In this document: positions 5,082-58,127 of the stretch, in pieces | Layout of the letters: each line of letters opens with the position of its first letter | Position numbering within the stretch: position 1 is the first letter of the stretch | Notes under the pieces: generated by a model | What the model saw: the letters and a program-made list of their open reading frames with translations, nothing else | The model's database searches: none | Told to the model about the DNA's origin: nothing | Translations under genes and position numbers: made by a program | Source of the DNA: a virus | IMG/VR virus record: IMGVR_UViG_3300046499_000502 | Coordinates: 6,335 to 70,334 of that record | Strand: one strand, 5' to 3' | Length of the DNA: 64,000 bases

Positions 5082-5351
5082 GTGGCGTACCGACGACAGG
5101 GGGACGACGTGCGACGCAGGTTGGACGACGTGGCTGGCCGGCTGCTGCTGCGGTTGGCGGTGGTGCTGCACCGGACGGTGGCGGGTAGGGCGGCGCGGGA
5201 ACGGCTGCAGGCCCGCCGGAATCGGGCGTTGCGGGCGGCTTACCGCCGGGGCGTGCCGGTGGAGGAACTGGCAGCACGGATGCAGTTGACGCCTAGCTGG
5301 ATCCGGCAGGTGCTCAACGGGAAGAAGCCGGCGGTGGAGGAAGCCGCGTAG
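5082..5351 (+). CDS. Small HTH DNA-binding protein
   Basis: RNRALRAAYRRGVPVEELAARMQLTPSWIRQVL. Confidence 0.65.
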   Translation: MAYRRQGDDVRRRLDDVAGRLLLRLAVVLHRTVAGRAARERLQARRNRALRAAYRRGVPVEELAARMQLTPSWIRQVLNGKKPAVEEAA

Positions 5352-5364
5352 GCGGACAACAGAG

Positions 5365-5394
5365 CGCCCCCGTAGCCGTATGGCTGCGGGGGCG
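5365..5394. terminator. Bidirectional hairpin between convergent genes
   Basis: CGCCCCCGTAGCC-GTAT-GGCTGCGGGGGCG. Confidence 0.65.
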
Positions 5395-5407
5395 TCGTCG
5401 TGGCCGG

Positions 5408-17041: not shown

Positions 17042-17650
17042 CTAGAACGGGGGCTGGTCGCTGTAGCGGAGGGGGCTGTCGTAGCTGAAGGGCTTGCCGC
17101 CGTTGAGGTCTTCGGCGCGCTGCTCGACGCGGCCTCGGAGGTCGAGCCCGATTCGCTTCAACTCGTCGGCGACGCTGCGGGCCCACGCGCGGACCGCGTC
17201 GCTCTCGCCGTCGGTGAGGGCTTCCGCGATGTGCCCGGCGATGACGGGGATAGCCGCGTTGAGGGTGTCGCCGGGCGTGACGTGGCCTGCGAGGTTGAGA
17301 TTCCGCAGGGCCGTCTCGACGGGCGGCGAGTACGGCTGGCCCTTGATGTAGGGGCCGAACTCGGCCGCATGCCGAACCGCCCCCGGGTCGTCGGCTGGGA
17401 CTGACTTGTTGCCGGTCGCGGCGCGCCACTCGCTGATGTGGTCGCCGTCGCCGACGTACCGGTCGGCGAGCTTGTCGACATCCAGGGCGATCTTGGCTGC
17501 GTCGAAGTGGGCTTGCGCTTCGGCGAGGTAGGCGTCGGCGTGGGCGTGCGATTCGGCATCGTCCTGAAGATCGCCGTCGTGGAAGCGGCGCTTCGCTTCG
17601 GCGATCACGAGGAGCTCCATGCCTCGCTGGTAGTGCTGCGGCCCGTTCAC
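17042..17650 (-). CDS. Hypothetical protein
   Basis: Coupled to the RecT-like gene. Confidence 0.75.
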   Translation of the reverse strand: MNGPQHYQRGMELLVIAEAKRRFHDGDLQDDAESHAHADAYLAEAQAHFDAAKIALDVDKLADRYVGDGDHISEWRAATGNKSVPADDPGAVRHAAEFGPYIKGQPYSPPVETALRNLNLAGHVTPGDTLNAAIPVIAGHIAEALTDGESDAVRAWARSVADELKRIGLDLRGRVEQRAEDLNGGKPFSYDSPLRYSDQPPF

Positions 17651-18414
17651 GCGGCACCGCCGGTGGTGGCCGCCTCGGGCCAGTCGGTGGAGCCTTCGGC
17701 CGCTTCGGCGTCCCAGACCCCGTCGCTGGACTCGTCGTCGCGGGCGACGGTGTACGCGGGCTCGGCGGCGGGCTGCTCGGGCGCCGCGGCGGGGGCCGGG
17801 GCCGTCAGGGCGGCAACGCTCAGCGGCGCCTTGGCGGGTGCGATCTCGCCGTGGACGTAGCCGTCGACTTCTTCAGCCGCATACGGCAGGCCGTGCAGGG
17901 CGTCGGAGGCGATGAGCCTGCAAAGTTCGCCGGTTGCGCGGGCGACGAGCATCGTCTTGGGCTGCTTCTTCCACTGGTCCTTGCCGAGGAGGCCCATTCG
18001 CTGGGCTCGCGGGATGTCCCAGACGACCTGCTGCCAGGTCTCGGCGCCCTTGCGGCGGCCTCGCATGATGCAGTGGACGTCGTCGGACTCGACGAGTTCG
18101 ATCTCGTGGCCCTGGTGCTGGACGATGGCCCGCATGGCGTGCGCGCGGAGGGCGGGCTGTCCCTGGATGACGTCGATCGACTTGAGGGCCGTCATCGGCT
18201 GGAGGCCGAGTTCCTGGCCGGTGAGGATCGCGGCGGTGATCTCGTCGGGCTTGCCGCGGTAGGCGCCGGCGAAGCTGGTGTTGGCGAGGGACTGGGCGAC
18301 GAGGTTGGCCTGCCTCGCGGATTCGACCCACTGCATGAGCTCGTTGGTCGGCTGCTGCGGCGCTGCGGTGGCGACGGTCTTCTCGTCGCGCTGGGCGATG
18401 TCTGTGCTGGTCAC
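17647..18414 (-). CDS. Single-strand annealing protein (RecT-like)
   Basis: AAILTGQELGLQPM.AL.SI.VIQG.P...W.K.P.TML.ARA; downstream of RecE-like gene; acidic tail. Confidence 0.75.
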   Translation of the reverse strand: MTSTDIAQRDEKTVATAAPQQPTNELMQWVESARQANLVAQSLANTSFAGAYRGKPDEITAAILTGQELGLQPMTALKSIDVIQGQPALRAHAMRAIVQHQGHEIELVESDDVHCIMRGRRKGAETWQQVVWDIPRAQRMGLLGKDQWKKQPKTMLVARATGELCRLIASDALHGLPYAAEEVDGYVHGEIAPAKAPLSVAALTAPAPAAAPEQPAAEPAYTVARDDESSDGVWDAEAAEGSTDWPEAATTGGAA

Positions 18415-19265
18415 TTCAGGTATTCCTCTGCCTGTCGGATGGTGTCCCAGGTCGGCATTCCGATCTGGGGGATTTCGGTGACGGCGCCGGTCCAGTCGGG
18501 CCAGCTGCCGGTGGCTTCGCATTCGGCGTAGATGCGCAGGGCGCGTTCGTTGCGGGCGCGGCCGATGTCCCGGTCCTGGTCGGTGAGTTCGCGGACCGTG
18601 ATCAGGTAGGGCGCGATCTTCGACTGAAAGACGAAGACGAAGCGGGCGCCTTCGGGGGCGAGCCCTGCGGCCTCGATGCCGTCGATGTAGAAGGCGTCCT
18701 GCTGGTGGTAGCTGCGGTCCTTGATGGCGCGGGAGATGGTGTCCGGCGCCGCGTCCTTGATCGTCTTGTAGTCGACGGCGATCGACCCGCGCCGCCAGTC
18801 CGGCCGGACCCGGCAGCGGACCCCGGTTGCCGGATCCGTCCAGAAGATCGACTGCTCGGCGACACCCGCACCAGGGGCGAACAGCGGGCTGGCGATCGGG
18901 TGCTGGCGGATCGCCTCCGCCATCGCCTGGACCATGTCGTGGTCCTTGGTGAGCAGCGGCACCTTGCCCGCCAGGTAGGCCTCGTCCCGCTGGATCTGCG
19001 CGTCCTTCTTGCGCCAGTCCGGGAAGTCGATGACCTCCAGCTCCGGGCCCTCCCCCAGCACCAGCAGGTGCGCGGCGTGCCCGAGGTCGAACTCCTTCTT
19101 GTGCGGCTGCGGGTGCTCCCGGTCGTACTTGAACTGGGCGGGGCAACCCGGGTTGAGCAGGGCGCGCAGGCCGGACGAGGAGATCGACGTCGTGTCCGCG
19201 TGGTAGGCCTCGGCGGACAGGCCGTCGACGATCTGCGGGGCCTCGACCTCCACCGCGGCGGTCAC
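18411..19265 (-). CDS. RecE/exonuclease VIII-like PD-(D/E)XK exonuclease
   Basis: YHAD...SSSG; G.A.H; RCRVRPDW; VDYKT; YHQQ.AFY. Confidence 0.85.
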   Translation of the reverse strand: MTAAVEVEAPQIVDGLSAEAYHADTTSISSSGLRALLNPGCPAQFKYDREHPQPHKKEFDLGHAAHLLVLGEGPELEVIDFPDWRKKDAQIQRDEAYLAGKVPLLTKDHDMVQAMAEAIRQHPIASPLFAPGAGVAEQSIFWTDPATGVRCRVRPDWRRGSIAVDYKTIKDAAPDTISRAIKDRSYHQQDAFYIDGIEAAGLAPEGARFVFVFQSKIAPYLITVRELTDQDRDIGRARNERALRIYAECEATGSWPDWTGAVTEIPQIGMPTWDTIRQAEEYLK

Positions 19266-19849
19266 TTCGCACCGCCGGTGACCGCGTCGTAGACGTCGCG
19301 GGCCCACCTGGCGTCGCCGAGCGCGGTGTGGGCGACGTCCTTGGTGGGCGGCTCGACGCCGACCTCGCGCGACACCCAATAGGAAGAGAACGGGCGGTCG
19401 TTCCGCAGCATGAAGTCGCGGTCGTTGCCGTAGATGTAGCCGGCCGCGAGGGTGGCGACGTCGACGGCGCGGTAGTGCCAAGGCCTCGGCTGCCAGTAGT
19501 AGCGGCCGAAGACGACGGCGATCATCTCGGCGTCGAATGCCGGGTTGGAGCCGATCACGATGGCGCTGTCGAGGAGCCGGTACAGGGAGCGTGCGACGTC
19601 CTGCGGTTCGTTCCAGGTCCAGTCGGTGGCGCTGGTCCGCTCGTGGAAGCGGTTGATCTCCAGCGCCTTCGGGTCCGCGCTGGCGAGGTCGGGGGCGATG
19701 CGGAAGACGTGCTCCTGGTCGTCCTCTTTCGGCTTGCGAAGGATGACCGCGATCTCCCACGGGTCGTGCTGGAACGGGTCGAGGCCTGTCGTCTCGCAGT
19801 CCACGAATGCCAGTGGCGGCGGTTGCTTTGTGGTGCTTTCGGTGCTCAT
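19262..19849 (-). CDS. DEDDh 3'-5' exonuclease (DnaQ-like)
   Basis: FVDCETTGL, GSNPAFD, HTALGDA. Confidence 0.9.
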   Translation of the reverse strand: MSTESTTKQPPPLAFVDCETTGLDPFQHDPWEIAVILRKPKEDDQEHVFRIAPDLASADPKALEINRFHERTSATDWTWNEPQDVARSLYRLLDSAIVIGSNPAFDAEMIAVVFGRYYWQPRPWHYRAVDVATLAAGYIYGNDRDFMLRNDRPFSSYWVSREVGVEPPTKDVAHTALGDARWARDVYDAVTGGAK

Positions 19850-31846: not shown

Positions 31847-32350
31847 TCAGAAGTCCATGACGATGCCGAGCGCCATCAGCCGGTAGCCCATCGCTGCTCG
31901 GCTCATCCCGAACCGGTTGGCGAGCAGGTCGACCAGCTCGGCGGCCGTCCCGAACTCCGCCTCGGCTGCCGCCTTGCGCACCTCTTTCTCCGGGGCCAGG
32001 AGTGCGGCGGCGAAGCGGTTCGCTTCGGCTTCCTCGCGGTCCGTCGGCATGCTCGGCAGCTTGCTGTAGCGGTGCCGGTCGATCGTGTCGAGGATCAGGT
32101 CCCGCCTACGGTGCAGTTGGAAGTGTCCGATCAGGTGGGCCAGCGTGAACCGCTGAGCGACTGGCGGTCGACCCGAGTTGAGACCGAGGATGATCTGGCC
32201 GTCGCGGCGTAGCAGCATTCCGGAGAGGCCGACGTCGTTTCCCTGTCGGGCGACCACGACCCCTAGATCGCATGCGGTCTTCTCCGGGTCGACGGGAAAG
32301 TCGGCGAGACCATCCGTGATGGCGCGGGCGGCTACGTCTGCTCTGGACAC
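31847..32350 (-). CDS. ImmA/IrrE-family (peptidase M78) homologue with HLIGH instead of HExxH
   Basis: PVDP...LSGML...LN......QRFTLAHLIGH...EAEANRFAAALL.P...F.MS..AM.YRL. Confidence 0.85.
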   Translation of the reverse strand: MSRADVAARAITDGLADFPVDPEKTACDLGVVVARQGNDVGLSGMLLRRDGQIILGLNSGRPPVAQRFTLAHLIGHFQLHRRRDLILDTIDRHRYSKLPSMPTDREEAEANRFAAALLAPEKEVRKAAAEAEFGTAAELVDLLANRFGMSRAAMGYRLMALGIVMDF

Positions 32351-32398: not shown

Positions 32399-32596
32399 GT
32401 GGCAATCGAACTACCTGAAGATCTGATCGCGCTCGAGCGCACCGCCTGGGCTGAGATCCAGGCCGGGCGGCTGACCGTGGAGACCGCCCGCGCCGTACAC
32501 GAGGGCATCGTCGCCTTCGCCGAACAGTCCAAGACCGGGCGGTACGACGTCGAGATGGGGCTGAAGAAGGCCGTCCGGCACGCGGCCGAGGCCTAG
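32399..32596 (+). CDS. Small hypothetical protein (..RYDVEMGLKKAVRH)
   Basis: Typical Streptomyces prophage small ORF. Confidence 0.65.
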   Translation: MAIELPEDLIALERTAWAEIQAGRLTVETARAVHEGIVAFAEQSKTGRYDVEMGLKKAVRHAAEA

Positions 32597-32746
32597 ACAG
32601 CAGCGAGCCCCGCACCGGGCGCTGTTCCGGGCGGGGCATCAGCAACAACCCGACTAGATCGTTGGGATGTTGGCCACCACTTTACGGGCGGCCACTGACA
32701 ACGGGGATGCCCATCGTCGACGGGGGACGGCGAACGAGGGGCAGGA

Positions 32747-32959
32747 TCAGTCTCGCAGGCCGTCCGCCTCGTCGGGCCAGGACGCGAGGACCAGCTGCTC
32801 CTGCTCGTCGACGAGGGTGACCCGGGCGCCGGTGACGGTCCCGTGCTCGCCAATCCAGCGGCGGAACTTCCGCTCGGCGGTCGCCCGGTCCGACCACCAG
32901 CCCTGCATGACAGGCTGGGCGCCGACCGACAGGGTGAGGTGATAACGCTCGTCGTCCAT
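32747..32959 (-). CDS. Small conserved protein (RYHLTL..G.PVMQGWW...A..KF..W)
   Basis: Coupled to the mini-LexA gene. Confidence 0.7.
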   Translation of the reverse strand: MDDERYHLTLSVGAQPVMQGWWSDRATAERKFRRWIGEHGTVTGARVTLVDEQEQLVLASWPDEADGLRD

Positions 32960-33183
32960 CACGCCAGCCTGATCCCGCGGCGCCGGCCCGGCTCCCGGAC
33001 GATCGCACCCTTCGTCTCCAGCTCGCCCAGCTGGTAGTGGACGGAGGCGCGGCTGCGCATGCCGACCCGCTCCCCGATCTCCTGCACGGTCGGTGCCTCC
33101 CCGCGGTCAGCGATCATCTCGCGGATGCAGCGGAGGATGCGTTCCTGGGTGTCGGTGAGGTGCTCGACCTTGTAGTGGCCCAT
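32959..33183 (-). CDS. LexA-type DNA-binding domain only (no peptidase domain)
   Basis: LTDTQERIL..IRE.I..RG..PTVQEIG..VG..S.ASVHYQL..LE.KG.I.R.P...RGI. Confidence 0.85.
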   Translation of the reverse strand: MGHYKVEHLTDTQERILRCIREMIADRGEAPTVQEIGERVGMRSRASVHYQLGELETKGAIVREPGRRRGIRLA

Positions 33184-33191
33184 GGATCGAT

Positions 33192-33207
33192 TAGAGCGCG
33201 TGTTCGA
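33192..33207. promoter_or_regulatory. Degenerate SOS box upstream of mini-LexA
   Basis: TAGAGC-GCGT-GTTCGA; right half perfect. Confidence 0.5.
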
Positions 33208-33234
33208 ATATTGGGGCAAGTCGACGCACGAGGG

Positions 33235-33263
33235 CTGACAGCCTGGCTGGCGGCACGTAGCGT
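33235..33263 (+). promoter_or_regulatory. sigma70/HrdB-like promoter
   Basis: CTGACA-N17-TAGCGT upstream of the 15-aa peptide ORF. Confidence 0.5.
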
Positions 33264-33293
33264 GGCCGGGCCGCACCAACGTGAGGAGGGGCC

Positions 33294-33341
33294 ATGAGCG
33301 ACGACACGACCTGGGGCATGAGCGACACCGCCTGGGGATGA
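33294..33341 (+). CDS. 15-aa peptide MSDDTTWGMSDTAWG
   Basis: GAGGAGG Shine-Dalgarno, ATG, internal tandem repeat, TGA, downstream hairpin. Confidence 0.55.
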   Translation: MSDDTTWGMSDTAWG

Positions 33342-33353
33342 ACCCGGACAGCG

Positions 33354-33391
33354 CGACGCCCCCGCAGCCGATGAGGCCGCGGGGGCGTTCG
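33354..33391. terminator. Hairpin between peptide ORF and convergent recombinase
   Basis: CGCCCCCGC...GCGGGGGCG. Confidence 0.6.
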
Positions 33392-33396
33392 CCCGT

Positions 33397-34413
33397 TCAG
33401 AGCCCGATGTCTTCGCTGGCGGCGTCGGTCCACTTGTCGGCTTCGCGGATGTAGCCCCAGAAGGCGGGGCTGTTCTCGGCGTGGCCGGACTGGGCGCGGA
33501 TCTTCTCCTCGCGCTTGCCTGCGATCCTCGAGGTCGTGATGAACCCGGCCCGCATGGAGTGGCCCGTCAGCCGGACGGCGATCCCGGCGCGCTCCGCGTT
33601 CCGGGCGATGATCTCGCGGCAGGCTTCGGGCGAGAGGCTCCTCGAGCCGACGTTGCCCCATACGTCGATGGGCAGGAAGGCGGGTCCGCTCGTGATGACG
33701 CTCGAGGACTTCCAGGTGGACCAGGCGCGGACGGGGCAGGTGTCGGGGTTCTTGCCGTAGGCGACGACGACGTCTCGAGCGGGGCGGCCTTTGACGGAGG
33801 GGACGTGTACCTCGAGGCCCATGCTCGAGAGGACGATGCCTTCGACGGTGAGCGCGGCGACTTCGGCGGATCGGCCTGCGATGCCGAAGGCCATGAGCCA
33901 TAGGGCGCGGTCGCGGAGGCCGGTCAGGCTCGAGGGTGCGGCGGCGCTCATCTTCCGCAGTTGCTCGGCGGTGGCTGCTGGGGCTTGCCCGCGTCCTCGA
34001 GCTTGGCGTTCGGGGTCGAGCTTGAGCGGCTTGAGGGCTTGGCGGGCGGCGACAGTGGCGGCCTTGGGGACTTCGACGCCTTGGCCTCGAGCGGTGACGG
34101 TGACGCCGGTGATGCGGCGGTCGATGCTGTTGGGTGCGGCGAGTTTGATGGTGTCGAGCCAGACGACGAATCCGACGAGCGTGCCCTTGGTTACGGCGGT
34201 CAGCGGCAGCGGCTGTCCGGTGCGTTCGGCGAGCCAGTCGTGGAACTCTTCCCAGAGTGCCCAGTCGTTGGCGTAGCCGCGCTTCGTGTTGTGGGGGCGG
34301 ATGGCGTCGAGGTGTTTCTCGGCTGCCTCTTCCATGGCGGCCAGAACAGCGAGCGTCGCAGCGTCGTAGGCGGCGGGGGTGGCGTCCGGCTGGCGCGGGG
34401 CGAGGTCGGTCAT
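33397..34413 (-). CDS. Second tyrosine recombinase (Cre-like, no arm-binding domain)
   Basis: NTKRGY..DW..W; RDRAL; GRSAEV; SVKG; TCPVRA; GHSMRAG; QSGH; GYIR. Confidence 0.88.
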   Translation of the reverse strand: MTDLAPRQPDATPAAYDAATLAVLAAMEEAAEKHLDAIRPHNTKRGYANDWALWEEFHDWLAERTGQPLPLTAVTKGTLVGFVVWLDTIKLAAPNSIDRRITGVTVTARGQGVEVPKAATVAARQALKPLKLDPERQARGRGQAPAATAEQLRKMSAAAPSSLTGLRDRALWLMAFGIAGRSAEVAALTVEGIVLSSMGLEVHVPSVKGRPARDVVVAYGKNPDTCPVRAWSTWKSSSVITSGPAFLPIDVWGNVGSRSLSPEACREIIARNAERAGIAVRLTGHSMRAGFITTSRIAGKREEKIRAQSGHAENSPAFWGYIREADKWTDAASEDIGL

Positions 34414-43296: not shown

Positions 43297-44760
43297 TCAC
43301 CCGAAGTCGTAGAGGGCGATCGCCAGCAGTGTGGAGAATGCGGCGGCGAGGTCGGCGAGGGTCGAGTAGTTGTCGGCGATGTCCTGGAGTGTGAATCCTG
43401 CGGCCTCCATGACGTCGGGCCAGTCGTCGGCTTTGACGACGTCGAGGGTGAACCAGCGGAATTCGTCGTACCAGGTGGGTGCCTCGTTGTCGGAGAGCAG
43501 GGCGTAGGTGCCGTCGAGGCGGCTCATTGACGTCTGCTTGCGGACGAGGATGACGCCTTCGGTGGCGTTGTCGAGGATCCCGTTGAGGGCGTCGCCGTCC
43601 TCATCGGTCTCGGTGCGCACGCTGATGGATGAGGACGGCGCGGACCGCGGGCGTCCCACGACGACAATCCGGCCGCCGACGTTGAACTGGGTAGCGTCGC
43701 GGTCCCTTTTTTTCTCCAGAGGCGATTCGATTTTCACGGCGGCGCCGACACCGCGGATGGCGTCCGAGACGACGTCGCTGGTCACCGTGGACGTAATCGG
43801 CCCGGAGTACGCGGTCCACTGCTGGCCGTAGACGTCGGTGAGGATGGCCGCATAGTTCAGCGAGATCCCGAACGGCTGCTCTGCGTCCACGCGCAGGAAC
43901 GAGGACTGCCCTGTGACGTCGATGCCGCTGGCCGCGCGCACAGGGATGAGGTCGGTGCCGACCTGCCGGTAGAGGGTGATGGTGGTGATGTCGTCGGCGG
44001 TCAGGCCGGTCGCCGCTACGAGGTTGCGGGGCGGGAACACGGACTGCGGGGTGGCGTTGACGTCGCTGGACGCCTCCCGGACGCGCAACACGCTGGCAAC
44101 CCCTGTCGTGGCGGTTGAGAGGGTCGCTGTGATGGTAGGCGCCATCGTGGCCGGGCCTGCGGTTACTGACGCGCTGGCCGCTCCGGTGCGCGCTCCGTTG
44201 CCCGTCGCCGCCGCGGCGGAGAACCGGCCGACCGCCGTATCGAAGGTGACACCTGCCGCGGAGATGCCCACCGTCGGAAACCCGTCGGTCGACACCGGCA
44301 GGCCATACCCCCACCATGCAAAGTCGCCGGGAGCCCAAGTCAGGGCGGTAGTGCAAGGTGCCGAGAACGCGGTGCCGGAGGTGGTGTCCTCGGCTGCCGC
44401 AAAGGCCCACCGCCAGCCGGTGCCCGCCGAGCGGGACAGTAGGGCGATCGTGCCTGCGATGACGGAGCCCGTGCCCCCGGAGGGGATGGAGGTGGTGGGC
44501 CCGGCGTCCCCGCCGATCATCTCGCGCACAAATATGGTGATCCTGCGCGGCCCCGTCCCGACCCCGAGTGTTCCGCCGCCCCCGGAGAACGATCCGGCGA
44601 GCGTCCAGCCCGACGGCGTGGACGGGATGCTGAGGTTGGGGTGCGAGGAGATAACCTGCAGAATTCCGAGCTGGCCGGCCGATGGGGTCGCGGAGTAGGA
44701 CGGCGTGACGGTGTTCGCGTCGACCGCCGTTCCACCCTGACTGAGGTACGAGATCGTCAC
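43297..44760 (-). CDS. Distal-tail-like protein with N-terminal accessory domain
   Basis: Directly after TMP; D.EQPFG and C-terminal TLQDIA..YSTLADL repeats. Confidence 0.75.
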   Translation of the reverse strand: MTISYLSQGGTAVDANTVTPSYSATPSAGQLGILQVISSHPNLSIPSTPSGWTLAGSFSGGGGTLGVGTGPRRITIFVREMIGGDAGPTTSIPSGGTGSVIAGTIALLSRSAGTGWRWAFAAAEDTTSGTAFSAPCTTALTWAPGDFAWWGYGLPVSTDGFPTVGISAAGVTFDTAVGRFSAAAATGNGARTGAASASVTAGPATMAPTITATLSTATTGVASVLRVREASSDVNATPQSVFPPRNLVAATGLTADDITTITLYRQVGTDLIPVRAASGIDVTGQSSFLRVDAEQPFGISLNYAAILTDVYGQQWTAYSGPITSTVTSDVVSDAIRGVGAAVKIESPLEKKRDRDATQFNVGGRIVVVGRPRSAPSSSISVRTETDEDGDALNGILDNATEGVILVRKQTSMSRLDGTYALLSDNEAPTWYDEFRWFTLDVVKADDWPDVMEAAGFTLQDIADNYSTLADLAAAFSTLLAIALYDFG

Positions 44761-47700
44761 CGCCGCCCCACCTTCGCCCGGTACGCCTGCCAGCCCTCGG
44801 ACGCCTTGATCTTCGGTTTGACCTGGACGTCGATGAGGTCGCGCAGCCGGTCGTCGTTGAAGTGGACGTGAACGTCAGTGCCATCACGGTTTTCCAGTGC
44901 GAGGGCAACCCGCTCCCACAGCGCGTTGTCGCGGGAGTTCGCGGAGGTCGCCGCGGTCGGGACGTAGCGGCGGCGCACGGAGACGCCAGACGCCGTGTCG
45001 GCGAGGCGTTGGGCTGCTCCTCCGGCGAGGTGGCTGTGCAGGTCCATGCCGTGGACCATGCCGAGGACGACCTGCTTGCCGACCTCGTCACGGAACACCC
45101 CGGACGGGCTCTTGATCTTCAGAGCCTTCTTGATGGCCTTCACGAGATCGGTGGCGAGCTTGTCGATCTGCTTCGTGAGAGCCTTCTCCTGCGACTTCAG
45201 GCCTGCGAGGAATCCCTCGCCAGCATGCTTGCCACTGTCGTACATCATGTCGGCCATGTCCTGGCCGAAGGATGTCGCCAGCTTCCCGCCGGACGCCACC
45301 AGGCCGTTCAGCTTGGTGATGTCCTGGGTGGTGACGTTCTTGTCGCCGAGAATGTTCGCGAGCTGACTGCCCGGTCCGGCGTCCGACAGTTGCTGAAGCA
45401 GTGCCTTGCTGGCACCGCGCGCCTTCAGCGACTTCGTCAGCGACACGAAGTTGCTCGCGGTCTTCTGCTGGCCGCTCATCTGCGAAATGAGGCCGCCAAT
45501 GTCGGTGGCCGATGTTCCGGAGATGGACAGGAAGTCGCTGATGTTCGACGCCTGATCCGATGCGTACTGCATGGCCGCGGCGATGGTCTTCTCAATCGAG
45601 GCCCGCTTGTCGACGAGCTTCTCCAGCTTGTCGCCCGACTTCATGACCGTCTTGGACAGCTTGTCGAATCCGGCGTTCAGGAGCTTCGCGTTGAGGCTCT
45701 TGAGCGCCGAGGCGATTGCCGACGAGGTGCCCGCCGTCAGCGTCTTCAGCAGGCCGTTCTTGATGGTCGTGGCGATCGACGTCTTCGCGCTGCGCCTCGC
45801 GTTCTTCAGTGATATCTCCGCAGCCTGCAGCTCCTTCTCGGCAGCCTTCAGTCGCTTCTCCGCCGCCTGTACGCCTTTGTGTCGCCGCTTGGCGCGAGCG
45901 AGATCGCCCTTGGCGTCCCCCACTTTCCGCTTGTCGCGCCGCACCCGGTCCGCGGCGTTGGTGATGGTGCCGGACGCGTACCCGGGCAGTTTGATCCCGT
46001 TGGCCTTGGCGAACGCCATCGACTGCGGGTTGGACATCACGTCCTCGCCGCCCTTGAAGTTGACCAGCTCCGGGCCCTTTTCGCCGACCCAGGCCAGGCC
46101 CTTCGCGGCGCCGCCCGTGCCCTTGGCGTACCAGTGCGGCGAGCGGGCGAGCCACTGGCTGTAGGCGTTCAGCGGGCTGCCGTAGCGTTCGGCAATGTAC
46201 GACAGACCCCACTTGATCTGCGTGGAGGCGTTCGTCTTCCAGTCCGAGCCCGCCGAGCCCATCTTGCTCGCCGGCAGCGACTGCGGGATGCCATACGCGC
46301 CGCTGCTCTTGTTCAGTGCGCGCTCGTTCCAGCCCGACTCGCCGTTCCACAGGTTCTTCAGGGCAGCCCACTGTGGGCCGGACCAGCCGCGGGCAGCCGC
46401 GAGCGCCTCACCGATCTTCTGGTTGGCCGACGACCCTCCGCCGCTTCCACCCAGACCGAGCAGGCCGAGCAGGTCACCCCCGAGGCCCCCAAGCGCCTTG
46501 AGGGCCTTGCCGGGTAGCTTGGTGATGCTGACCAGGCCCTTCTTGACGATCGACCCGAGCGCCTTCGGAAGGGAGCCGAAGACCTTCTTCGCGATGGCCG
46601 TGCCCGACGTCTTGGCCATGCCCTTCATGAGGCCGGTAACCAGGTGACCGCCGATACCCATGAACACGCGGCTGGGTGACCGGATGCCGAAGAAGTGCTT
46701 CACCGCGTTGACGACGGGATCGACGATGGTCTTCTTGATCCAGGAGCCGATTCCCTTCATCGTCCCGACGATCCCGGTCTTAAAGCCGGAGATCAGCGAG
46801 CCGCCCTTGCTCACGAGCCAGCCGCCCGCCTTCGAGAACCGGCTCAGGACCGGGCTGGCGATATGGGAGTACGCCCACGACCCGATCGCCTTGGCGCCGA
46901 CGCTGACGCCCGACTTGAAGCCGCCGACGAGAGCACTACCCTTGCCGATCAGCCACCTTCCCGATCGAGCCATCCAGTTGGCAATGGGCGCCAGGATGTG
47001 GTCGAACACCCAGCCGCCGATCGCTTTCGCGCCGGTACTGACGCCGCTCCTGAAGCCGGAGACGAGAGCGCTACCCTTGGACAGCAGCCACGACCCGGCA
47101 CGCTTGAAGGCTCCGACGACCGGGTCGATAACCCACTTCTTGCCGAAGCCCCCAATGGCCCGGCCGCCCCGGGCCACGCCGCTACCGAAGCCCCGTGCGA
47201 GGTCGGCGCCCTTGCCGAGTAGCCAGCTGCCAGCCTTGACGAAAGGCTTCACGACGAGGCCGACGATCTCGCCGACTTTCGCGATGACCCAGCCGGCTCC
47301 ATCACGGATGCCGTTGCCCAGGAAGTGGATGGCGGCCTTGCCTTTGTCCAGCAGTTTGAGGCCCCACACGCCGATACGCGTGGTGAGCAGCCCGGTCTCG
47401 CGCTCGATGATTTTTGCGCCCTCAGGGAAGACCCGGGCGAGCCCCTTCCACAGGCTCGTGCCGAAGAACTTTACGACCTTGCTGAAGGCGCGCGAGATCG
47501 GCCCGGTCAGACGATCGATGCCGCGGAGCATCGGTGCGAAAATCTTGAGGATCGGGATCCTCGAAATGATCCTTTCAAGCGGTCCGGCGATCTTCCCGAC
47601 ACCCACGAAGGACAGCGCGGCGACGACCGTGTCCCACCAGTGCTTCTTCCAAAAATCGGCACTGAACAAGTCCGCGCCGAAGCTGCTGACGAAACCGATC

Positions 47701-49400
47701 GCGAAGCCGAGAGCGTTGCCGCCGACCTCCTTGCCGATGTTCACCCAGTCGAGACCACCGAGGGCGCTCGCGAGCTGCTTGGTGAGCTTCCCGGCGTTCT
47801 TGGCTAGCCACTGGAAACTCTTGCCGAGAGCGTCTCCGAGCTGCGCGCCCATCTTCGAGAAGTCCGCGTTGCCGATGCCGATGGAGACGGCCTTGCGGAT
47901 CGTCTCGCCGATCTTCTGGGCAGCGCTCTTGGGAGGCGCCGCCTTCGGCGATACGAGCGAGGCCACCAGACCCGACCCGCCATGCGGCAAGGGCGCCAGC
48001 GCAGGCCCCCGCACACCGGTGGTGGGTGCGACCTGGCCGACGCCGTAGTGCGGCATCGGCGCCAGAGCAGGGCCCTTCACCTTCGCGGCTGCACTGCCGG
48101 AGCCCAGATGCGGAGACGTGTCGAACAGGCCGCTGACCAGATCCGATGCAGCGCTCTTCGTGCCGGAGAAGCCCTTCAGGAAGTCGGACACGAGGCCCTT
48201 GGCGGTCGAGATGCTGGTCTTGATGGCGTCGACCGGTATCAGGTTGCCCATGGTCCGCCCGAACCGCGCCGCGGCTGGCATGGCGTCCGAGGCGAGGAAC
48301 TTCACGAACGCGGTGACGGGCGGCAACACCTTCGTGCCAACCCGGATGCCCATCACCTCGAGGTTCGAGACGAGCAGGTGCCATTGGGCCTCGGCCGTCT
48401 TGCGCTGCATTTTGACCGCGTCGTCGAACCGGCCGGTGCTGCGGTTGATCTGCTCCTGCTTCTTCTCGAGCACGTCGAGGTTGTTGAGCATCAGCAGGAT
48501 GCCGCTCGAGGAACGGCCGCCACCAAACGCCCTGCTGAGCAGCTGGGACTGCTTCGAGGCGGACAGCCCCGACTTGTCGAGGTGCTCCTTCAGAAGTCCG
48601 ATGGCGCCGATCAGTCCCTTTGGACCACGCATCGCGTCGGCGAGGTTCAGCCCGGTGAGTCCGATCTTCTTCAGCTGCTTCTCCGCCGCACCAGACGGGG
48701 CGCCCAGCAGCGAGAAGCTCATCCGCAGCCGGGTCGCGGCTGACGCGGAGTCGATGCCCTCGTCCGTCATCAGCGCGAGCGCGGCGCCGACCTGCTTCAT
48801 CGACAGGCCGAAGGTCTTCGCCGACGGCAGGATGCCGGTGCCGATCGCCGCGTTGAACTGATCCATCGACATGTTGCCCGCGCCGATGATCGCGTTCACC
48901 GTAGAGACGGCCTCGTGGAACGAGGTGGCGCCCTTGATGCCGGTCCGCCACGCGCCCGCCAGGGCGTTCGTGGTCTCTTCGAGGTTCGCGTGGCCGACCG
49001 CCGCGAGGTCCGACGCCTCCTTGAGGGCCTTCATCGCAGACACGTTGTCCATACCGACGCTCTTCAGGTGGTACAGCGACTCGGCGAGATGCTGCGGACC
49101 CTGCTGGGTGGACGTCCCCAGCTTCAACACTGCATCGGAGAGAACCTTGACGTCCTTCGCAGTGCCGCCGGCCTGCGTCGAGATCCGAGTCATCTCGGAC
49201 TGGAACTCGGCCGCCTTCTTCGCCGACTCGCCCAGTCCCACCGCGAGCCCGGCAGCCATGGCGGCGCCCGCCTTGACGGCGGTCTGGCCGAGCTTCGCGA
49301 GCGTGCGCTCCGTGCTACTCGCGGACCGGCCCACCGTGTTGAACGTGCGGGACGCCGAGTCGTGGGCGATGAGCCGGTAGATGATGCTGGAGCTGGCCAT
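44757..49400 (-). CDS. Tape measure protein with lytic transglycosylase (SLT-like) domain
   Basis: TP901-type TMP N-region; about 40-aa W-repeats; I.SPS motifs; ESGWN..A.N.SSGAYGIPQ.LP..YG; VGEKGPEL. Confidence 0.93.
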   Translation of the reverse strand: MASSSIIYRLIAHDSASRTFNTVGRSASSTERTLAKLGQTAVKAGAAMAAGLAVGLGESAKKAAEFQSEMTRISTQAGGTAKDVKVLSDAVLKLGTSTQQGPQHLAESLYHLKSVGMDNVSAMKALKEASDLAAVGHANLEETTNALAGAWRTGIKGATSFHEAVSTVNAIIGAGNMSMDQFNAAIGTGILPSAKTFGLSMKQVGAALALMTDEGIDSASAATRLRMSFSLLGAPSGAAEKQLKKIGLTGLNLADAMRGPKGLIGAIGLLKEHLDKSGLSASKQSQLLSRAFGGGRSSSGILLMLNNLDVLEKKQEQINRSTGRFDDAVKMQRKTAEAQWHLLVSNLEVMGIRVGTKVLPPVTAFVKFLASDAMPAAARFGRTMGNLIPVDAIKTSISTAKGLVSDFLKGFSGTKSAASDLVSGLFDTSPHLGSGSAAAKVKGPALAPMPHYGVGQVAPTTGVRGPALAPLPHGGSGLVASLVSPKAAPPKSAAQKIGETIRKAVSIGIGNADFSKMGAQLGDALGKSFQWLAKNAGKLTKQLASALGGLDWVNIGKEVGGNALGFAIGFVSSFGADLFSADFWKKHWWDTVVAALSFVGVGKIAGPLERIISRIPILKIFAPMLRGIDRLTGPISRAFSKVVKFFGTSLWKGLARVFPEGAKIIERETGLLTTRIGVWGLKLLDKGKAAIHFLGNGIRDGAGWVIAKVGEIVGLVVKPFVKAGSWLLGKGADLARGFGSGVARGGRAIGGFGKKWVIDPVVGAFKRAGSWLLSKGSALVSGFRSGVSTGAKAIGGWVFDHILAPIANWMARSGRWLIGKGSALVGGFKSGVSVGAKAIGSWAYSHIASPVLSRFSKAGGWLVSKGGSLISGFKTGIVGTMKGIGSWIKKTIVDPVVNAVKHFFGIRSPSRVFMGIGGHLVTGLMKGMAKTSGTAIAKKVFGSLPKALGSIVKKGLVSITKLPGKALKALGGLGGDLLGLLGLGGSGGGSSANQKIGEALAAARGWSGPQWAALKNLWNGESGWNERALNKSSGAYGIPQSLPASKMGSAGSDWKTNASTQIKWGLSYIAERYGSPLNAYSQWLARSPHWYAKGTGGAAKGLAWVGEKGPELVNFKGGEDVMSNPQSMAFAKANGIKLPGYASGTITNAADRVRRDKRKVGDAKGDLARAKRRHKGVQAAEKRLKAAEKELQAAEISLKNARRSAKTSIATTIKNGLLKTLTAGTSSAIASALKSLNAKLLNAGFDKLSKTVMKSGDKLEKLVDKRASIEKTIAAAMQYASDQASNISDFLSISGTSATDIGGLISQMSGQQKTASNFVSLTKSLKARGASKALLQQLSDAGPGSQLANILGDKNVTTQDITKLNGLVASGGKLATSFGQDMADMMYDSGKHAGEGFLAGLKSQEKALTKQIDKLATDLVKAIKKALKIKSPSGVFRDEVGKQVVLGMVHGMDLHSHLAGGAAQRLADTASGVSVRRRYVPTAATSANSRDNALWERVALALENRDGTDVHVHFNDDRLRDLIDVQVKPKIKASEGWQAYRAKVGRR

Positions 49401-51682: not shown

Positions 51683-52144
51683 CTAGCGGCCGCTGTACGC
51701 GTCGCAGGACACCTCGAACACGACGACTGCCTGCGCGCCCTTGGTCGTCTGGTCCATGGTCAGACTGTGCGACGAGATCATCGCTCGCATCACGCTGCCG
51801 CCGAGCTGTCGGTTCGCCGCGATAGCCTCCCCGGCCTCGCGGAGCAGCTCATAGGCGCGCCGCCGGGCGACGGCAACACCGTCCCCGCCGATCAGGACCG
51901 CCGTTGCGCAGCGGATGGTGAACTGCTCACGGTCGATCGAGCCCCCCATGCCCTCTGTCAGCAGGGTGGACTCGGCGTCCGTGCCATCGTCGCCGCCGGT
52001 GTAACCGACCGACACGATCTCCTGCACGGTCGCCTGAGACGTCGACGGCCCGTCCCGCACCGTCACGCCGGCCAGTCCGGGCCACGCAGTGAACGCGGCA
52101 ACGAGAGCATCCATCGCGGCCGGAAGCCGGGACGTCCACACCAT
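51683..52144 (-). CDS. Tail terminator-like protein
   Basis: V.DGP...VGY...E...I.C...RAYEL......LGG.V. Confidence 0.7.
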   Translation of the reverse strand: MVWTSRLPAAMDALVAAFTAWPGLAGVTVRDGPSTSQATVQEIVSVGYTGGDDGTDAESTLLTEGMGGSIDREQFTIRCATAVLIGGDGVAVARRRAYELLREAGEAIAANRQLGGSVMRAMISSHSLTMDQTTKGAQAVVVFEVSCDAYSGR

Positions 52145-52947
52145 CAGGCCACCCCCGGCAGTTGCGGATCGAGGAGCTCCAGGGCCCGCCGCGGGATCGC
52201 GAATCCGCGCCCTGCGACGTAGGGCTCGCTGTCGCCGCCGAGCTGCACGCCCATCGTGCCGCGCTGCGTCTCCCACAGATGCTGAACGATGATCAGCCCA
52301 GCAAGCCGGTAGTCGTCCGGAATGACGGCCTCACCCGCCTGGTACGTGAAATCCACGTCGCCCGCAAGCGACTCGCCAGACGTGACCGTCAGAAGGCCCG
52401 TCTCGCCGTCGACCCGCAGGTTCGCCGTGTTCCAGGTTGTCGACCCGTCCGCCGCAACCACCGAGGTCAGGGACAGCACCGGCACCTGCCGGAGAAGCAC
52501 CTCTCTGGCCCGGCCGACTTGCTGACGCTCGACGACGGTACGCCGCACCACAACCCGCCCTAGCGCCCGCTCCACCGCGCCCGTCGCCGCCCCGACGAAG
52601 CCGCGCAGCTCGTCGTCGTCGGCGGTCTCCGACGGCCCCATGTTCAGCTGAGCGCGCGCATCCGCCAACGACACGATGCCGACTGGGATCGCGGGCTGCA
52701 CGTCGAAAACATCCGCATACGCCGTGGTCGGCCCGCTGGTGACGAGCCGCCACACGTGCCGACCCGCCTGAGCGGTCACGTAGTCGACGCGCACCTGCCC
52801 CGTCGTCGTCGGCGTCGGCACCGCGGGGCTGACCGTAGTCCCGTCCGGCAGGATGATCGTGAGGTCCGCCGAGCCCGGATTGACGGGCGCGCCGGACGCG
52901 TCGACGACGTCCACGGCCACCTGATAGACGCTGCCCAGGTCAAGCAT
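52144..52947 (-). CDS. Head-tail adaptor (HK97 gp6-like) with N-terminal Ig-like extension
   Basis: IVSLADARAQLN...DDDEL..F..AAT..VE; Y.AG...P...L.IVQHLWETQRG. Confidence 0.85.
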   Translation of the reverse strand: MLDLGSVYQVAVDVVDASGAPVNPGSADLTIILPDGTTVSPAVPTPTTTGQVRVDYVTAQAGRHVWRLVTSGPTTAYADVFDVQPAIPVGIVSLADARAQLNMGPSETADDDELRGFVGAATGAVERALGRVVVRRTVVERQQVGRAREVLLRQVPVLSLTSVVAADGSTTWNTANLRVDGETGLLTVTSGESLAGDVDFTYQAGEAVIPDDYRLAGLIIVQHLWETQRGTMGVQLGGDSEPYVAGRGFAIPRRALELLDPQLPGVA

Positions 52948-55828: not shown

Positions 55829-57130
55829 TCAGGCTGCGTTCCCAGCGAAATACTTGACGGCGCCGGTGAGGTCCACGAGCGAGCAGTCCGCGCGCATCAG
55901 CGCCCGGAACGTCACGAGGTCGCTGCTGAACGCGAAGTCGTCGGAGCGCTCGAAGCGGACACCGCCGGCGAAGCGGACGAAGAACTGGCTGAAGTCGCCG
56001 AACAGGACGGACTTCGCGGCCAGCGCGACGCTCGCCACGTTCGGGTCGGTGAGGACGGGCTTGCCGAGCAGCATGTCCGGGGCGCCGGCCTGGAGGGACG
56101 GCTGCCAGATGTACTGGCCGGTGGTGTCCTTGAGCTTGCGGGCCGCTCCGACAGTGGCATCCTTCATGATCCACTTGCAGGACGCGGAAGCACGGTACGG
56201 GGCGATCACCGAGTAGAACAGGTCGATGATGTTGTCGCCCGAGAAGGCGCCCGTCACGCCGGACTGGCCGGTGACGCCCAGGGTGGCGTCGGTAACGACG
56301 CCGCGGGGCTGGCTGGTGCCGGTACCCGTGATGGCGTGGGCGCCGAAGGCGTTGCCGAGCGCGCGCCCGGCCTGCATGGCGAGATAGCCCTCCAGGTCGA
56401 CACCCGTGTCGTCCAGAAGCTCGCGGGAGACCTGGATCATCGTGCCGTACTTGTAGGCGGCAAGCGGGATCTGCCCGAATGCCGGGTCAGAGGTGCCGAT
56501 CGTGTTGCCTTCGGTGACGATCGACGCCGAGCTGTGCGCGGTCGTCTTCGGGACCTGGATGACCTCACCCGAATTGGTGTTGAGGATCGTCGCGCCCGCC
56601 TGCATGACCGCCGACACCTCGATCAGGTGCGCGATCAGCCGGTCGTAGAAGCCGGTCGGCACCGTGTTGCCGCCAGCCGTCGCCGTCCCCTTGACCAGCG
56701 ACCGGTAGTCCACCGGCCCGTCCGGGGCGACATCGTAGAAGCGGCCACGCTCGCCGCGGAGGAACGAGCGCAGCTCATCACCACGGTCGCCTTCACTCCC
56801 AGCCGCCGGGCCCTGCGCGGCGCGCTGCGAGGTCGCGGTGCCGCCGCCCTGGCTGCTGCGCTGAGAGCCTCCCCCGCGCTGCCCCGAACCGGAGCCCTGA
56901 TTGTGCAGCCGGTCGAAGGCCTCGTCCGCCTCCTTGGCGCGGGCCTCGGTGTCGAGTGCGGACTTGATGCGGGCGTCGAGCTTGTCCAGCTCGTCGTTCA
57001 TCGCATCCCACGAGCCCTGCTCGTCGGGGCTGAAGTTGCGGTTGTCCTCCGCGGCCTTGTCGGCGATCGCCTTCATCTGCTCCCAGACGTTGGCGCGGCG
57101 CTCACGCAGCCTCTGAACCATTTCAGACAT
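55829..57130 (-). CDS. Major capsid protein (HK97 fold with N-terminal delta domain)
   Basis: Coiled-coil N-terminus; GG.TVP; VSRELL.D; G.GT.QP.G; LKD..GQYIWQ; LLG.PV; FGDFS; GAGGAG RBS at ATG 57130. Confidence 0.95.
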   Translation of the reverse strand: MSEMVQRLRERRANVWEQMKAIADKAAEDNRNFSPDEQGSWDAMNDELDKLDARIKSALDTEARAKEADEAFDRLHNQGSGSGQRGGGSQRSSQGGGTATSQRAAQGPAAGSEGDRGDELRSFLRGERGRFYDVAPDGPVDYRSLVKGTATAGGNTVPTGFYDRLIAHLIEVSAVMQAGATILNTNSGEVIQVPKTTAHSSASIVTEGNTIGTSDPAFGQIPLAAYKYGTMIQVSRELLDDTGVDLEGYLAMQAGRALGNAFGAHAITGTGTSQPRGVVTDATLGVTGQSGVTGAFSGDNIIDLFYSVIAPYRASASCKWIMKDATVGAARKLKDTTGQYIWQPSLQAGAPDMLLGKPVLTDPNVASVALAAKSVLFGDFSQFFVRFAGGVRFERSDDFAFSSDLVTFRALMRADCSLVDLTGAVKYFAGNAA

Positions 57131-57404
57131 GGGTGTGGACTCCTCGTCCGGTCGAAATCGATTTCGAACGGGGAGCCCTCGCGGTCCCGCACCCCGTGGG
57201 GTGCCGGCGGCCGGCGCCTTTTCGCAACCGGCGGTCCGCTGATCCCTTCCTCGTGTCGCATCCATCCCGTTGTGTGCTTCACCGCGCCCAGAGTGGACAC
57301 CGACCGGGAGATCCCAAGTCGGCGCCGTGGCGGCGCGACTACGCGGTCCAAGGATGAAATGCCGCCCTCGCGTAACGAGGGGCTTCAGGGGCGAGGCAAA
57401 TGCC

Positions 57405-58127
57405 TCAGACGTAGGGGTCTTCCTTGCGACCCAGAAGGACCGCGGCCGCGGCCGGACCGAACATCCCCTTGCGACCGACCTTCTTGGGCTGCGGGCCATC
57501 CGTCCGGACGAAGAACTTTCGGAGCTCGTCCGCGTCGGCCAGCGAGCGGACCTCTTCCAGGTCGGCGCTGAACTTGTCCGCCAGTGACCGCAGACCTGCG
57601 GTGCTGTCCGGGTAGGCCGGCGTGTTGACCGGGGCGACGTCGACGAGCTGGACGCCCGTCAGCCGGCGCAGCGGGTAGCCCTGCTCGGTCGTCGCCCAGT
57701 CATCGGCCACCGTCCGGAACGCGAAGCTCGACTTGCGGACGTCGCCGCGCTCGACGAGCTCCACCACGTGCCCCATCGCGGCGGGCGGCAGCACGTCGTA
57801 GGACAGCCCGTAGGCGTCCAGGCTCATCCGCAGCGTGCCGGCCGCAGTCGTGCCGAGCAGCTGGTTATCGTCGTGGTTGTAGCGGGCGATCACCTCCGGC
57901 CAGCCGTCACCGCGGGACTGGTTGAAGGCGATCGGGTCCACGACCTCGACGAAGCCGCCGAGGTTGCGGGACTGCCGGTTGAAGACCGCGGCATAGCCGC
58001 CGATCCTCTTGGCTCCGTTGTCGGCGCGAAGTTCGGCCTTGCCTGTGTCGCCGGAGGTGTACCGGCGTTCGATATCCACGGTGCTGCCTCCTACGGCGGT
58101 CGGCGTGGTGGTGTCCTGCTTAGCCAT
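57405..58127 (-). CDS. HK97-family prohead protease
   Basis: GYAAVFN, YNHD, SSFAF, DVAPVN.PAY. Confidence 0.92.
   Translation of the reverse strand: MAKQDTTTPTAVGGSTVDIERRYTSGDTGKAELRADNGAKRIGGYAAVFNRQSRNLGGFVEVVDPIAFNQSRGDGWPEVIARYNHDDNQLLGTTAAGTLRMSLDAYGLSYDVLPPAAMGHVVELVERGDVRKSSFAFRTVADDWATTEQGYPLRRLTGVQLVDVAPVNTPAYPDSTAGLRSLADKFSADLEEVRSLADADELRKFFVRTDGPQPKKVGRKGMFGPAAAAVLLGRKEDPYV

Follow-up and report, generated by a model that had tools for sequence, protein, structure and literature searches.

A stretch of 64,000 nucleotides of viral DNA, referred to here as the window (bases 6335-70334 of the 70,334-base IMG/VR record IMGVR_UViG_3300046499_000502, rated 100% complete), carries between positions 33235 and 33391 a compact unit composed of a promoter-like site, a Shine-Dalgarno (SD) sequence, a very short open reading frame (ORF) and a terminator-like hairpin. 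Comparison of this unit, called the cassette below, with its relatives argues that it is a real micro-gene with a conserved peptide product, recurring in dozens of Streptomyces prophages. Comparative evidence alone defines a family of micro-ORFs that share a conserved peptide end, come with their own promoter-like site and terminator and in some copies have a structured leader; the family is confined to Streptomyces prophages and located between lysogeny regulators and a recombinase. To our knowledge, ORFs of 7-8 codons are never annotated, and very few of them are known to matter, namely the precursors of the mccA type and a small number of leader and arrest peptides. Full-text literature searches, from which supplementary files were excluded, gave no account of this ORF family.

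The anatomy of the cassette, its conservation at the peptide level, its modularity and its distribution emerge directly from sequence comparison. As to its role, we tentatively favor a moron-type micro-gene built like mccA, yielding large amounts of a short peptide that would act in trans, although we would not give this proposal quite an even chance. Such a gene would combine promoter, SD, ORF and terminator in a self-contained unit. It would be present in a minority of the temperate phages of Streptomyces, at the junction of lysogeny-control genes and a recombinase gene. Its functional part would be the peptide, with a conserved C-terminal Asp-[Thr/Ser/Pro]-x-Trp-Gly followed by an immediate stop; the usual product would have 7-8 residues, and the in-frame duplication in the window would give 15. 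We infer that the cassette is transcribed and translated, that it yields the peptide in quantity, with the lysogen as the probable setting, and that the peptide acts in trans on a target.

All parts of the cassette ahead of the hairpin are read from the plus strand of the window. A -35-like hexamer CTGACA (33235-33240) is followed after 17 nucleotides by a -10-like hexamer TAGCGT (33258-33263). The SD sequence GAGGAGG (33283-33289) includes GGAGG at 33285-33289, 4 nucleotides ahead of the ATG of the micro-ORF (33294-33341). The ORF encodes MSDDTTWGMSDTAWG, with unit 1 at 33294-33317, unit 2 at 33318-33338 and the stop codon TGA at 33339-33341. The spacer ACCCGGACAGCGCG (33342-33355), which aligns with the family consensus (G)CCCCGGACAGCA.., leads to a hairpin (33356-33388; arms 33356-33369 and 33375-33388) with 14-nucleotide arms, 93% complementary, and a 5-nucleotide loop. 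This hairpin is the putative terminator for both convergent transcripts, and the integrase stop codon lies 8 nucleotides beyond it. The CTGACA-N17-TAGCGT site, GAGGAGG, the ORF and the hairpin are all present where the first-pass annotation of this DNA had placed them, and its description of a discrete unit is supported. No longer reading of the ORF is possible upstream, because an in-frame TGA (33282-33284) lies 12 nucleotides before the ATG.

The ORF contains a tandem duplication, in frame, detected by TRF (period 21-24, 2.0-2.4 copies, 84-85% matches) and visible as direct repeats in the ORF region (33302-33316/33323-33337 and 33289-33302/33313-33326), which confirms the duplicated M-S-D-(D)-T-x-W-G unit noticed at first pass. 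Folding of the RNA of 33270-33400 gave z = -2.45, with 0/200 shuffles folding equally well, and in the window transcript the predicted unpaired probability is 0.75 for the SD and 0.97 for the start codon. Within 32500-34000, a generic scanner for sigma-70 promoters and for terminators made no call of either kind; it is silent at the cassette because the hairpin lacks a T-run and the -10 hexamer reads TAGCGT. Moreover, the hairpin is of a generic type: another one, with 84% identity to that of the cassette, is present between convergent genes at 5362-5397, and terminator-like matches of this kind turn up in many Streptomyces genomes. For these two reasons the window alone proves little, and it is conservation in relatives that places the feature beyond chance. 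The gene ending around position 5350 resembles the helix-turn-helix (HTH)-like gene that precedes the micro-ORF in another locus, L079.

Conservation of the micro-ORF

In total, 43 distinct cassettes were counted, drawn from contigs of uncultured viruses and from 14 Streptomyces genomes. All 43 hold an ORF of 6-15 codons ending in D-[T/S/P]-x-W-(G), with the stop codon directly after. TGA, TAA and TAG all serve as stop within the family, and the stop falls within one codon of W-G in 43/43. The first-pass annotation had made its proposal depend on peptide-level conservation among related phages, and such conservation was found, D-x-x-W-G-stop standing in 43 distinct copies. The peptides take the form MSD(D)TxWG, with x being A, T, G, W, Y or D, or MSGDTGWG, MDD(D)T[AT]WG and MRRD[PS]IW(G), and five forms are tandem. 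Most copies are single ORFs of 7-8 residues. The double core noticed at first pass is a genuine duplication but a minority form, with 5 distinct doubles.

The window integrase has 66 relatives in the viral-contig collection, at 68-96% identity. Those 63 integrase loci in which the match reaches the gene end were examined (L064-L066 were dropped, their match being cut by the locus end), and a homologous tiny ORF was found beyond the integrase in 11 of them. A landmark search employing non-coding sequence only, namely the leader end GGCCGCAC and the terminator arm ACGCCCCCGC, returned at least 118 stretches; 26 cassettes are present among the 107 distinct segments listed, the other 81 being unrelated chance matches. 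In all 26 listed cassettes an ORF of 6-15 codons stands at a constant distance from GGAGG, and new variants appeared among them: a GTG start (L104), MRRDPIWG (L117), MDDDTTWG (L130) and MSDTAW directly followed by the stop (L169). A search with the promoter and leader start alone gave 23 distinct units, 4 of them chance and 19 genuine, and 16 of the 19 continue into ORF and terminator.

Cellular genomes, one per species, were scanned with the SD, ATG, TGGGGNTRR and terminator fixed and with the frame and intervening residues free. Twenty-seven stretches were obtained. All 14 Streptomyces matches (14/14) are in frame and end in D-x-x-W-G-stop. Among the genome records with a match are those of Streptomyces azureus ATCC 14921, S. 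rishiriensis NBRC 13407, S. lavendofoliae JCM 4391 and S. swartbergensis HMC13. The 13 non-Streptomyces stretches contain 0 cassettes: 11 are out of frame, L192 is without a stop after the match and L209 has an unrelated in-frame ORF.

Codon usage carries the signature of coding selection, and the reading frame is not a chance ORF. Threonine is encoded by ACC (17), ACG (11) and ACA (1), glycine by GGC (23) and GGA (6), and the stops are TGA (14), TAA (7) and TAG (5). Because part of this codon table came from a search fixing several codons, the landmark and genome sets present the fair test. Length changes are in frame (an Asp codon present or absent), Thr and Gly codon changes are synonymous, and variation is concentrated at x (A, T, G, W, Y, D or I). 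In the divergent MRRD[PS]IWG group, nothing but M, D, W, G and the stop is retained. In the 5 tandem forms, S-D-(D)-T-x-W-G is kept in both units and the joining codon drifts (ATG/CTC/AAC). Mimicry of the end of a larger protein was also considered and rejected: no larger protein ending in the motif occurs in the 1.99 Mb of fetched DNA, where all 64 frames matching D[TSP].WG plus stop are cassettes.

Promoter, leader and terminator

The promoter-like site is shared throughout the family. A -35-like NTGACA is found in 35/41 distinct cassettes (CTGACA in 30, GTGACA in 4, ATGACA in 1), the -10-like hexamer is TACCGT in 35/41 and TAGCGT in 2/41, and the two are separated by 18 nucleotides in 37/41 and by 17 in 3/41. 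The GGAGG-N4-start spacing is present in every cassette listed, with GGAAGG once (L168).

About two thirds of copies possess a leader of some 60 nucleotides between the -10 hexamer and the SD (for example L071:5498-5670, minus strand, and 26 other loci), and 13/41 are without it, including the window, L084, L073, L089 and others. The leader forms a three-way junction, with a closing stem of 10 base pairs or more, two tetraloop hairpins and an unpaired conserved GTTCGCA, and its stems covary between subtypes (TGCC/GGCA, ACCG/CGGT, CGCC/GGCG). These compensatory changes identify the leader as a structured RNA, which may stabilize the 5' end or bind something. At the gathering score, Rfam covariance models matched nothing in the window; across ten cassette loci, the sole match with E<=1 was the unrelated scr4677 (18.8 bits against a cut-off of 41 bits), outside the cassette.

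On the 3' side of the stop codon, a C-rich spacer (G)CCCCGGACAGCA is followed by a nearly invariant GC stem, ACGCCCCCGC...GCGGGGGCGT. In many relatives the spacer partly extends the terminator stem, GACA pairing with UGUC. The predicted median unpaired probability is 0.23 for the Trp-Gly codons and 0.82 for the stop codon.

Some loci depart from this layout. In L079 the ATG of the micro-ORF overlaps the stop of the upstream HTH-like gene (ATGA), so that the two are translationally coupled; a different terminator comes after the micro-ORF, then a co-directional small gene, and there is no recombinase. L074 is likewise without the cassette promoter. Leader-only variants (L280, L283 and L284; also L005, L030 and L039) retain promoter and leader and have no SD, ORF or terminator. 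Their leader ends 5-13 nucleotides from the convergent stop codon, and transcripts would therefore enter the convergent gene in antisense direction. As a separate observation, a recurrent hairpin with a GACGGGGG loop, then CAGTGTGGCACG, lies just upstream of the cassette -35 hexamer or, in relatives without the cassette, directly behind the integrase (for example in L036, L041, L004, L024 and at G001:C3:256941-256976).

Action in trans or in cis

A micro-gene is favored because constraint acts on the amino acids, with both tandem units kept, because the SD-ORF module is retained though the promoter, leader, terminator and downstream gene change, and because its build matches that of mccA. According to one report, ribosome binding on mccA induces termination and stabilizes a short RNA, which is abundant (PMC4231749); in another, mccA-type heptapeptide ORFs are described as translated reiteratively (PMC6495379). 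The cassette resembles mccA in having its own promoter-like site, an SD, an ORF of about 7 codons with lengths of 7-8 residues preferred in the family, a hairpin starting 11-20 nucleotides after the stop and a stable 5' stem-loop, which two thirds of copies possess. In contrast to MccA, whose sequence MRTGNAN has a C-terminal Asn for adenylation (PMC6495379), cassette peptides end in W-G or W in all 43 copies. MccA sequences are not conserved, whereas the C-terminus of the cassette peptide is. The cassette neighbors are recombinases and regulators, with no MccB (ThiF-type) enzyme, pump or immunity gene among them, and the gene beyond the terminator is a convergent recombinase gene instead of a co-directional biosynthetic operon. 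Lacking both the C-terminal Asn and a ThiF/MccB-type gene in the phage genome, the cassette is not a microcin C system.

Morons are autonomous promoter-gene-terminator inserts in temperate phages. The cassette shares with them a conserved promoter-like site, its own terminator, presence or absence among close relatives (11/63 integrase relatives) and location in the lysogeny region, and it differs in that its cargo is only an ORF of 7-15 codons, whose expression in the lysogen is our supposition. If action in trans is true, this would be an unusually small phage effector.

Several points weigh against a peptide acting in trans. Short unmodified cytoplasmic peptides are usually degraded fast. 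A search of the 70-kb phage record for a ThiF/MccB-type gene (PF00899) found none, with the control positive in 14/14 reference genomes, and annotation of the neighbors pointed to no target, receptor or modifying enzyme. The sequencing runs found are mainly of rhizosphere and soil metagenome DNA; one RNA run covers integrase relatives and has no contig over 33224-33385, a result based on contigs only and uninformative either way on transcription. Convergence with a recombinase in 38/43 cassettes and three leader-only variants firing antisense are not explained by a peptide in trans, except by shared descent of the flanking module. Conservation of UGGGG could partly serve RNA pairing, though such pairing is barely above shuffles. 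Finally, the cassette counts overstate the number of independent events, because the sequences are related by descent.

The principal alternative view is that the cassette is a cis-acting, translation-gated terminator controlling antisense transcription into the recombinase gene, such transcription being what the promoter would really serve. The terminator's efficiency would be set by ribosomes initiating, pausing or terminating on the micro-ORF, through either a D-T-x-W-G nascent chain at the peptidyl-transferase center or stop codon, in the style of TnaC and PepNL, or mccA-style ribosome-induced termination, and recombinase expression would be tied to the translational state of the host. We regard this as possible, though rather doubtful. 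The genomic context speaks for it: a site-specific recombinase gene, always convergent, lies within 2.6 kb downstream in 38/43 cassettes. It encodes a tyrosine integrase of the window family, of a second family at about 28% identity or of a third kind, or else a small serine recombinase. In some loci, small genes with an Endonuclease VII domain stand between cassette and recombinase. Five cassettes have no recombinase match, and for 2 of these the available sequence does not exceed 1 kb. As a rule, the terminator ends about 9 nucleotides from the stop codon of the recombinase, and three natural variants with promoter and leader but without ORF and terminator end 5-13 nucleotides from the convergent stop. 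The constant orientation may, however, partly be inherited, because the upstream module is shared as well: tblastn finds a homologue of the window's 71-residue protein in 25/43 upstream flanks, of its 65-residue protein in 20/43 and of its LexA-type gene in 10/43. Nor does L079, with its co-directional downstream gene and no recombinase, fit a gate of this kind.

The peptide itself can be argued in both directions. Its conserved residues are the last five before an always immediate stop, where arrest peptides act, yet the internal unit of the tandem forms is conserved though it is not beside a stop. For known ORFs no longer than 10 codons, the base rate favors leader peptides, and the cassette resembles a leader-peptide attenuator in placing a short ORF, with predicted translation, upstream of a terminator. 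Short peptides that block termination are known, PepNL being an example (PMC11890864). With TnaC and PepNL the cassette shares a very short ORF, conserved residues beside the stop and a downstream termination signal (PMC8450073 and PMC11890864). It differs from both in having no co-directional regulated gene beyond the terminator, with the possible exception of L079, and in using all three stop codons, which indicates no release-factor specificity, whereas TnaC and PepNL arrest at UGA with RF2.

No antiterminator pairing is evident in the folds of 41 cassettes, although no dedicated search for mutually exclusive structures was made, and the G-rich and C-rich segments are so ordered that a ribosome masking one of them could not release the other. 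The distance from stop to stem varies from about 11 to 20 nucleotides. A mini-hairpin with the stop codon in its loop is predicted in all copies; because it barely beats composition-preserving shuffles (-7.2 versus -5.5 kcal/mol, reaching the 5% level or less in 6/35), it was not used as evidence. If action in cis is true, recombinase expression, and hence integration and excision, would be linked to the host translation state.

Stated specifically, the product could be a hepta- or octapeptide fM-S-D-(D)-T-x-W-G on a dedicated mini-transcript, acting either in trans, as an unmodified effector within the lysogen, or on the ribosome, as a sensor gating antisense recombinase transcription; we advance this as a speculation that is unlikely to hold. 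Were it true in either form, it would represent a new class of lysogeny or host-control element, among the smallest conserved genes known and invisible to gene callers. Both the cis and the trans reading are directly testable in culturable lysogens carrying the cassette.

It is improbable that the ORF is incidental and that the conserved entity is DNA or RNA, for instance a small RNA acting in trans, or a protein-binding site in repeated form, be it an operator or an arm-type site close to attP. The unit does adjoin the integrase gene, where attP arm sites are expected, and it contains direct repeats; the promoter spacer and the spacer after the ORF are conserved, and compensatory changes mark the optional leader as a structured RNA. 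Against this stand the stop within one codon of W-G in all 43 copies by use of three different stop codons, indels in frame, synonymous Thr and Gly codon changes and a start codon at fixed SD spacing, once as GTG. In addition, the cassette occurs beside non-homologous recombinases, which would not share arm sites. No Rfam match was obtained, and the idea of the spacer ACCCGGACAGCGCG as a small-RNA seed was rejected, its complementary sites elsewhere in the window being at chance level (31 found, 30.5 expected).

A still less probable alternative is a minigene of the lambda bar type, which would act via peptidyl-tRNA drop-off or sequestration of ribosomes or tRNA and not via its peptide. One lambda bar minigene (barI) lies in the att/int region (attP), and bar ORFs are only a few codons long and are not known to have a conserved peptide. 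The likeness is that of tiny, SD-preceded ORFs in a temperate phage, here near int, and the phage of the window carries a tRNA-Gly(UCC) gene and a micro-ORF ending in GGA. The cassette peptide is nevertheless conserved, has 7-15 residues and comes with its own promoter-like site and terminator. Tandem forms reach 14-15 codons, far longer than bar ORFs, and tRNA sequestration requires neither conserved D, T, W and G with synonymous codons nor Gly codons of different tRNAs. In lambda, expression of bar minigenes affects translation through peptidyl-tRNA, whose accumulation makes them toxic to hosts short of peptidyl-tRNA hydrolase (PMC2490762).

The first-pass annotation had suggested a lysis-lysogeny communication peptide and had pointed to secreted DxxWG peptides of Streptomyces, encoded beside LuxR-type regulators. 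Its other suggestion, an intracellular mimic or inhibitor, may apply. Arbitrium AimP is a longer, secreted pro-peptide, processed to a short mature peptide and encoded beside its receptor AimR. The cassette peptide is likewise short, conserved and linked to the lysogeny-control region of a temperate phage, but a secreted, quorum-type signal is very improbable, since an ORF of 7-15 codons, with an in-frame TGA 12 nucleotides upstream in the window, leaves no room for a signal sequence, and the neighbors are a LexA-type winged helix-turn-helix (wHTH) gene, an M78 peptidase, an integrase and unknowns, with no receptor-like gene adjoining by Pfam or PHROGs (no AimR model was searched by accession). 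Pfam analysis of the neighbors revealed no LuxR-type gene adjacent to the micro-ORF, and no literature support was found, the full-text search for 'DxxWG' giving only unrelated plant work.

Phage, neighbors and distribution

The source is a siphovirus-type temperate phage with a window G+C content of 65-73%. Genes for the large terminase (59550-61088), major head protein (55829-57499), tape measure (44757-49400) and a RecT-like protein (17647-19272) were recognized. The micro-ORF unit sits in a 213-base gap separating two minus-strand genes. One of them encodes a tyrosine integrase of 338 amino acids (33397-34413; Pfam PF00589, E 6.6e-05, under the curated cut-off), convergent with the micro-ORF. 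The other is a LexA-type, winged-helix repressor-like gene of 74 amino acids (32959-33183; PF01726, E 5.1e-19; phrog_362 'transcriptional repressor', E 2.2e-08), divergent from the cassette promoter. An M78/ImmA-type peptidase gene (31847-32350) lies further left of the LexA-type gene. A 65-amino-acid protein (32399-32596, plus strand) and a 71-amino-acid protein (32747-32962, minus strand) are without Pfam or PHROG match. Pfam for ten neighbors and PHROGs for six gave LexA wHTH, M78 peptidase, integrase, DUF6221 and unknowns. The locus of the micro-ORF is the lysogeny-control region of the phage.

Immediately upstream of the LexA-type gene, 33193-33221 reads TAGAGCGCGTGTTCGAATATTGGGGCAAG, a stretch with conserved counterparts in L010, L017 and L028. 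Hardly any 5' leader is left ahead of the LexA-type ATG, which suggests a leaderless, repressor-type transcript, whose putative promoter would stand back to back with the cassette promoter.

Enrichment of neighbors was assessed in those integrase-defined loci whose sequence extends at least 2 kb past the integrase, with counts that ignore relatedness. The 65-residue protein is enriched beside the cassette, being present in 8/10 cassette-positive and 11/38 cassette-negative loci; the 71-residue protein is not clearly enriched (6/10 versus 15/38).

A sample of 401 Streptomyces genomes contains the full cassette in 2 genomes, one of them the query's own, and the leader only in one further genome (G028, match L224); the other 71 matching genomes of this sample have terminator-like or weak partial matches only. 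No cassette was found among the cultured phages of INPHARED or among the plasmids of PLSDB, the latter giving two terminator-like fragments only. The cassette is rare, and the true genome matches are all from Streptomyces.

ARAGORN placed no tRNA near the cassette in the window and made just 4 tRNA calls across 32 related loci scanned. Around the cassette copy in genome G200, no direct repeat or tRNA marking the prophage ends was seen within 100 kb. A tRNA-Gly gene (anticodon TCC; 52074-52159, minus strand) is located among the structural genes of the window. The Gly codon at the end of the window micro-ORF is GGA, whereas 23/29 family units use GGC; a link to the phage tRNA-Gly may be coincidence.

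The recurrent hairpin described above, the hairpin-CAGTGTGGCA element, is present in only 6/151 genomes of the genus, which assigns it to mobile elements, and on the same count its origin from host sequence (attB) was rejected. A gene whose product ends in C-x-x-C-R-P-D-T-E-L-G-[YL]-L-E precedes the hairpin-CAGTGTGGCA element, upstream of cassette or integrase, in L014, L030, L039, L050, L070 and L078.

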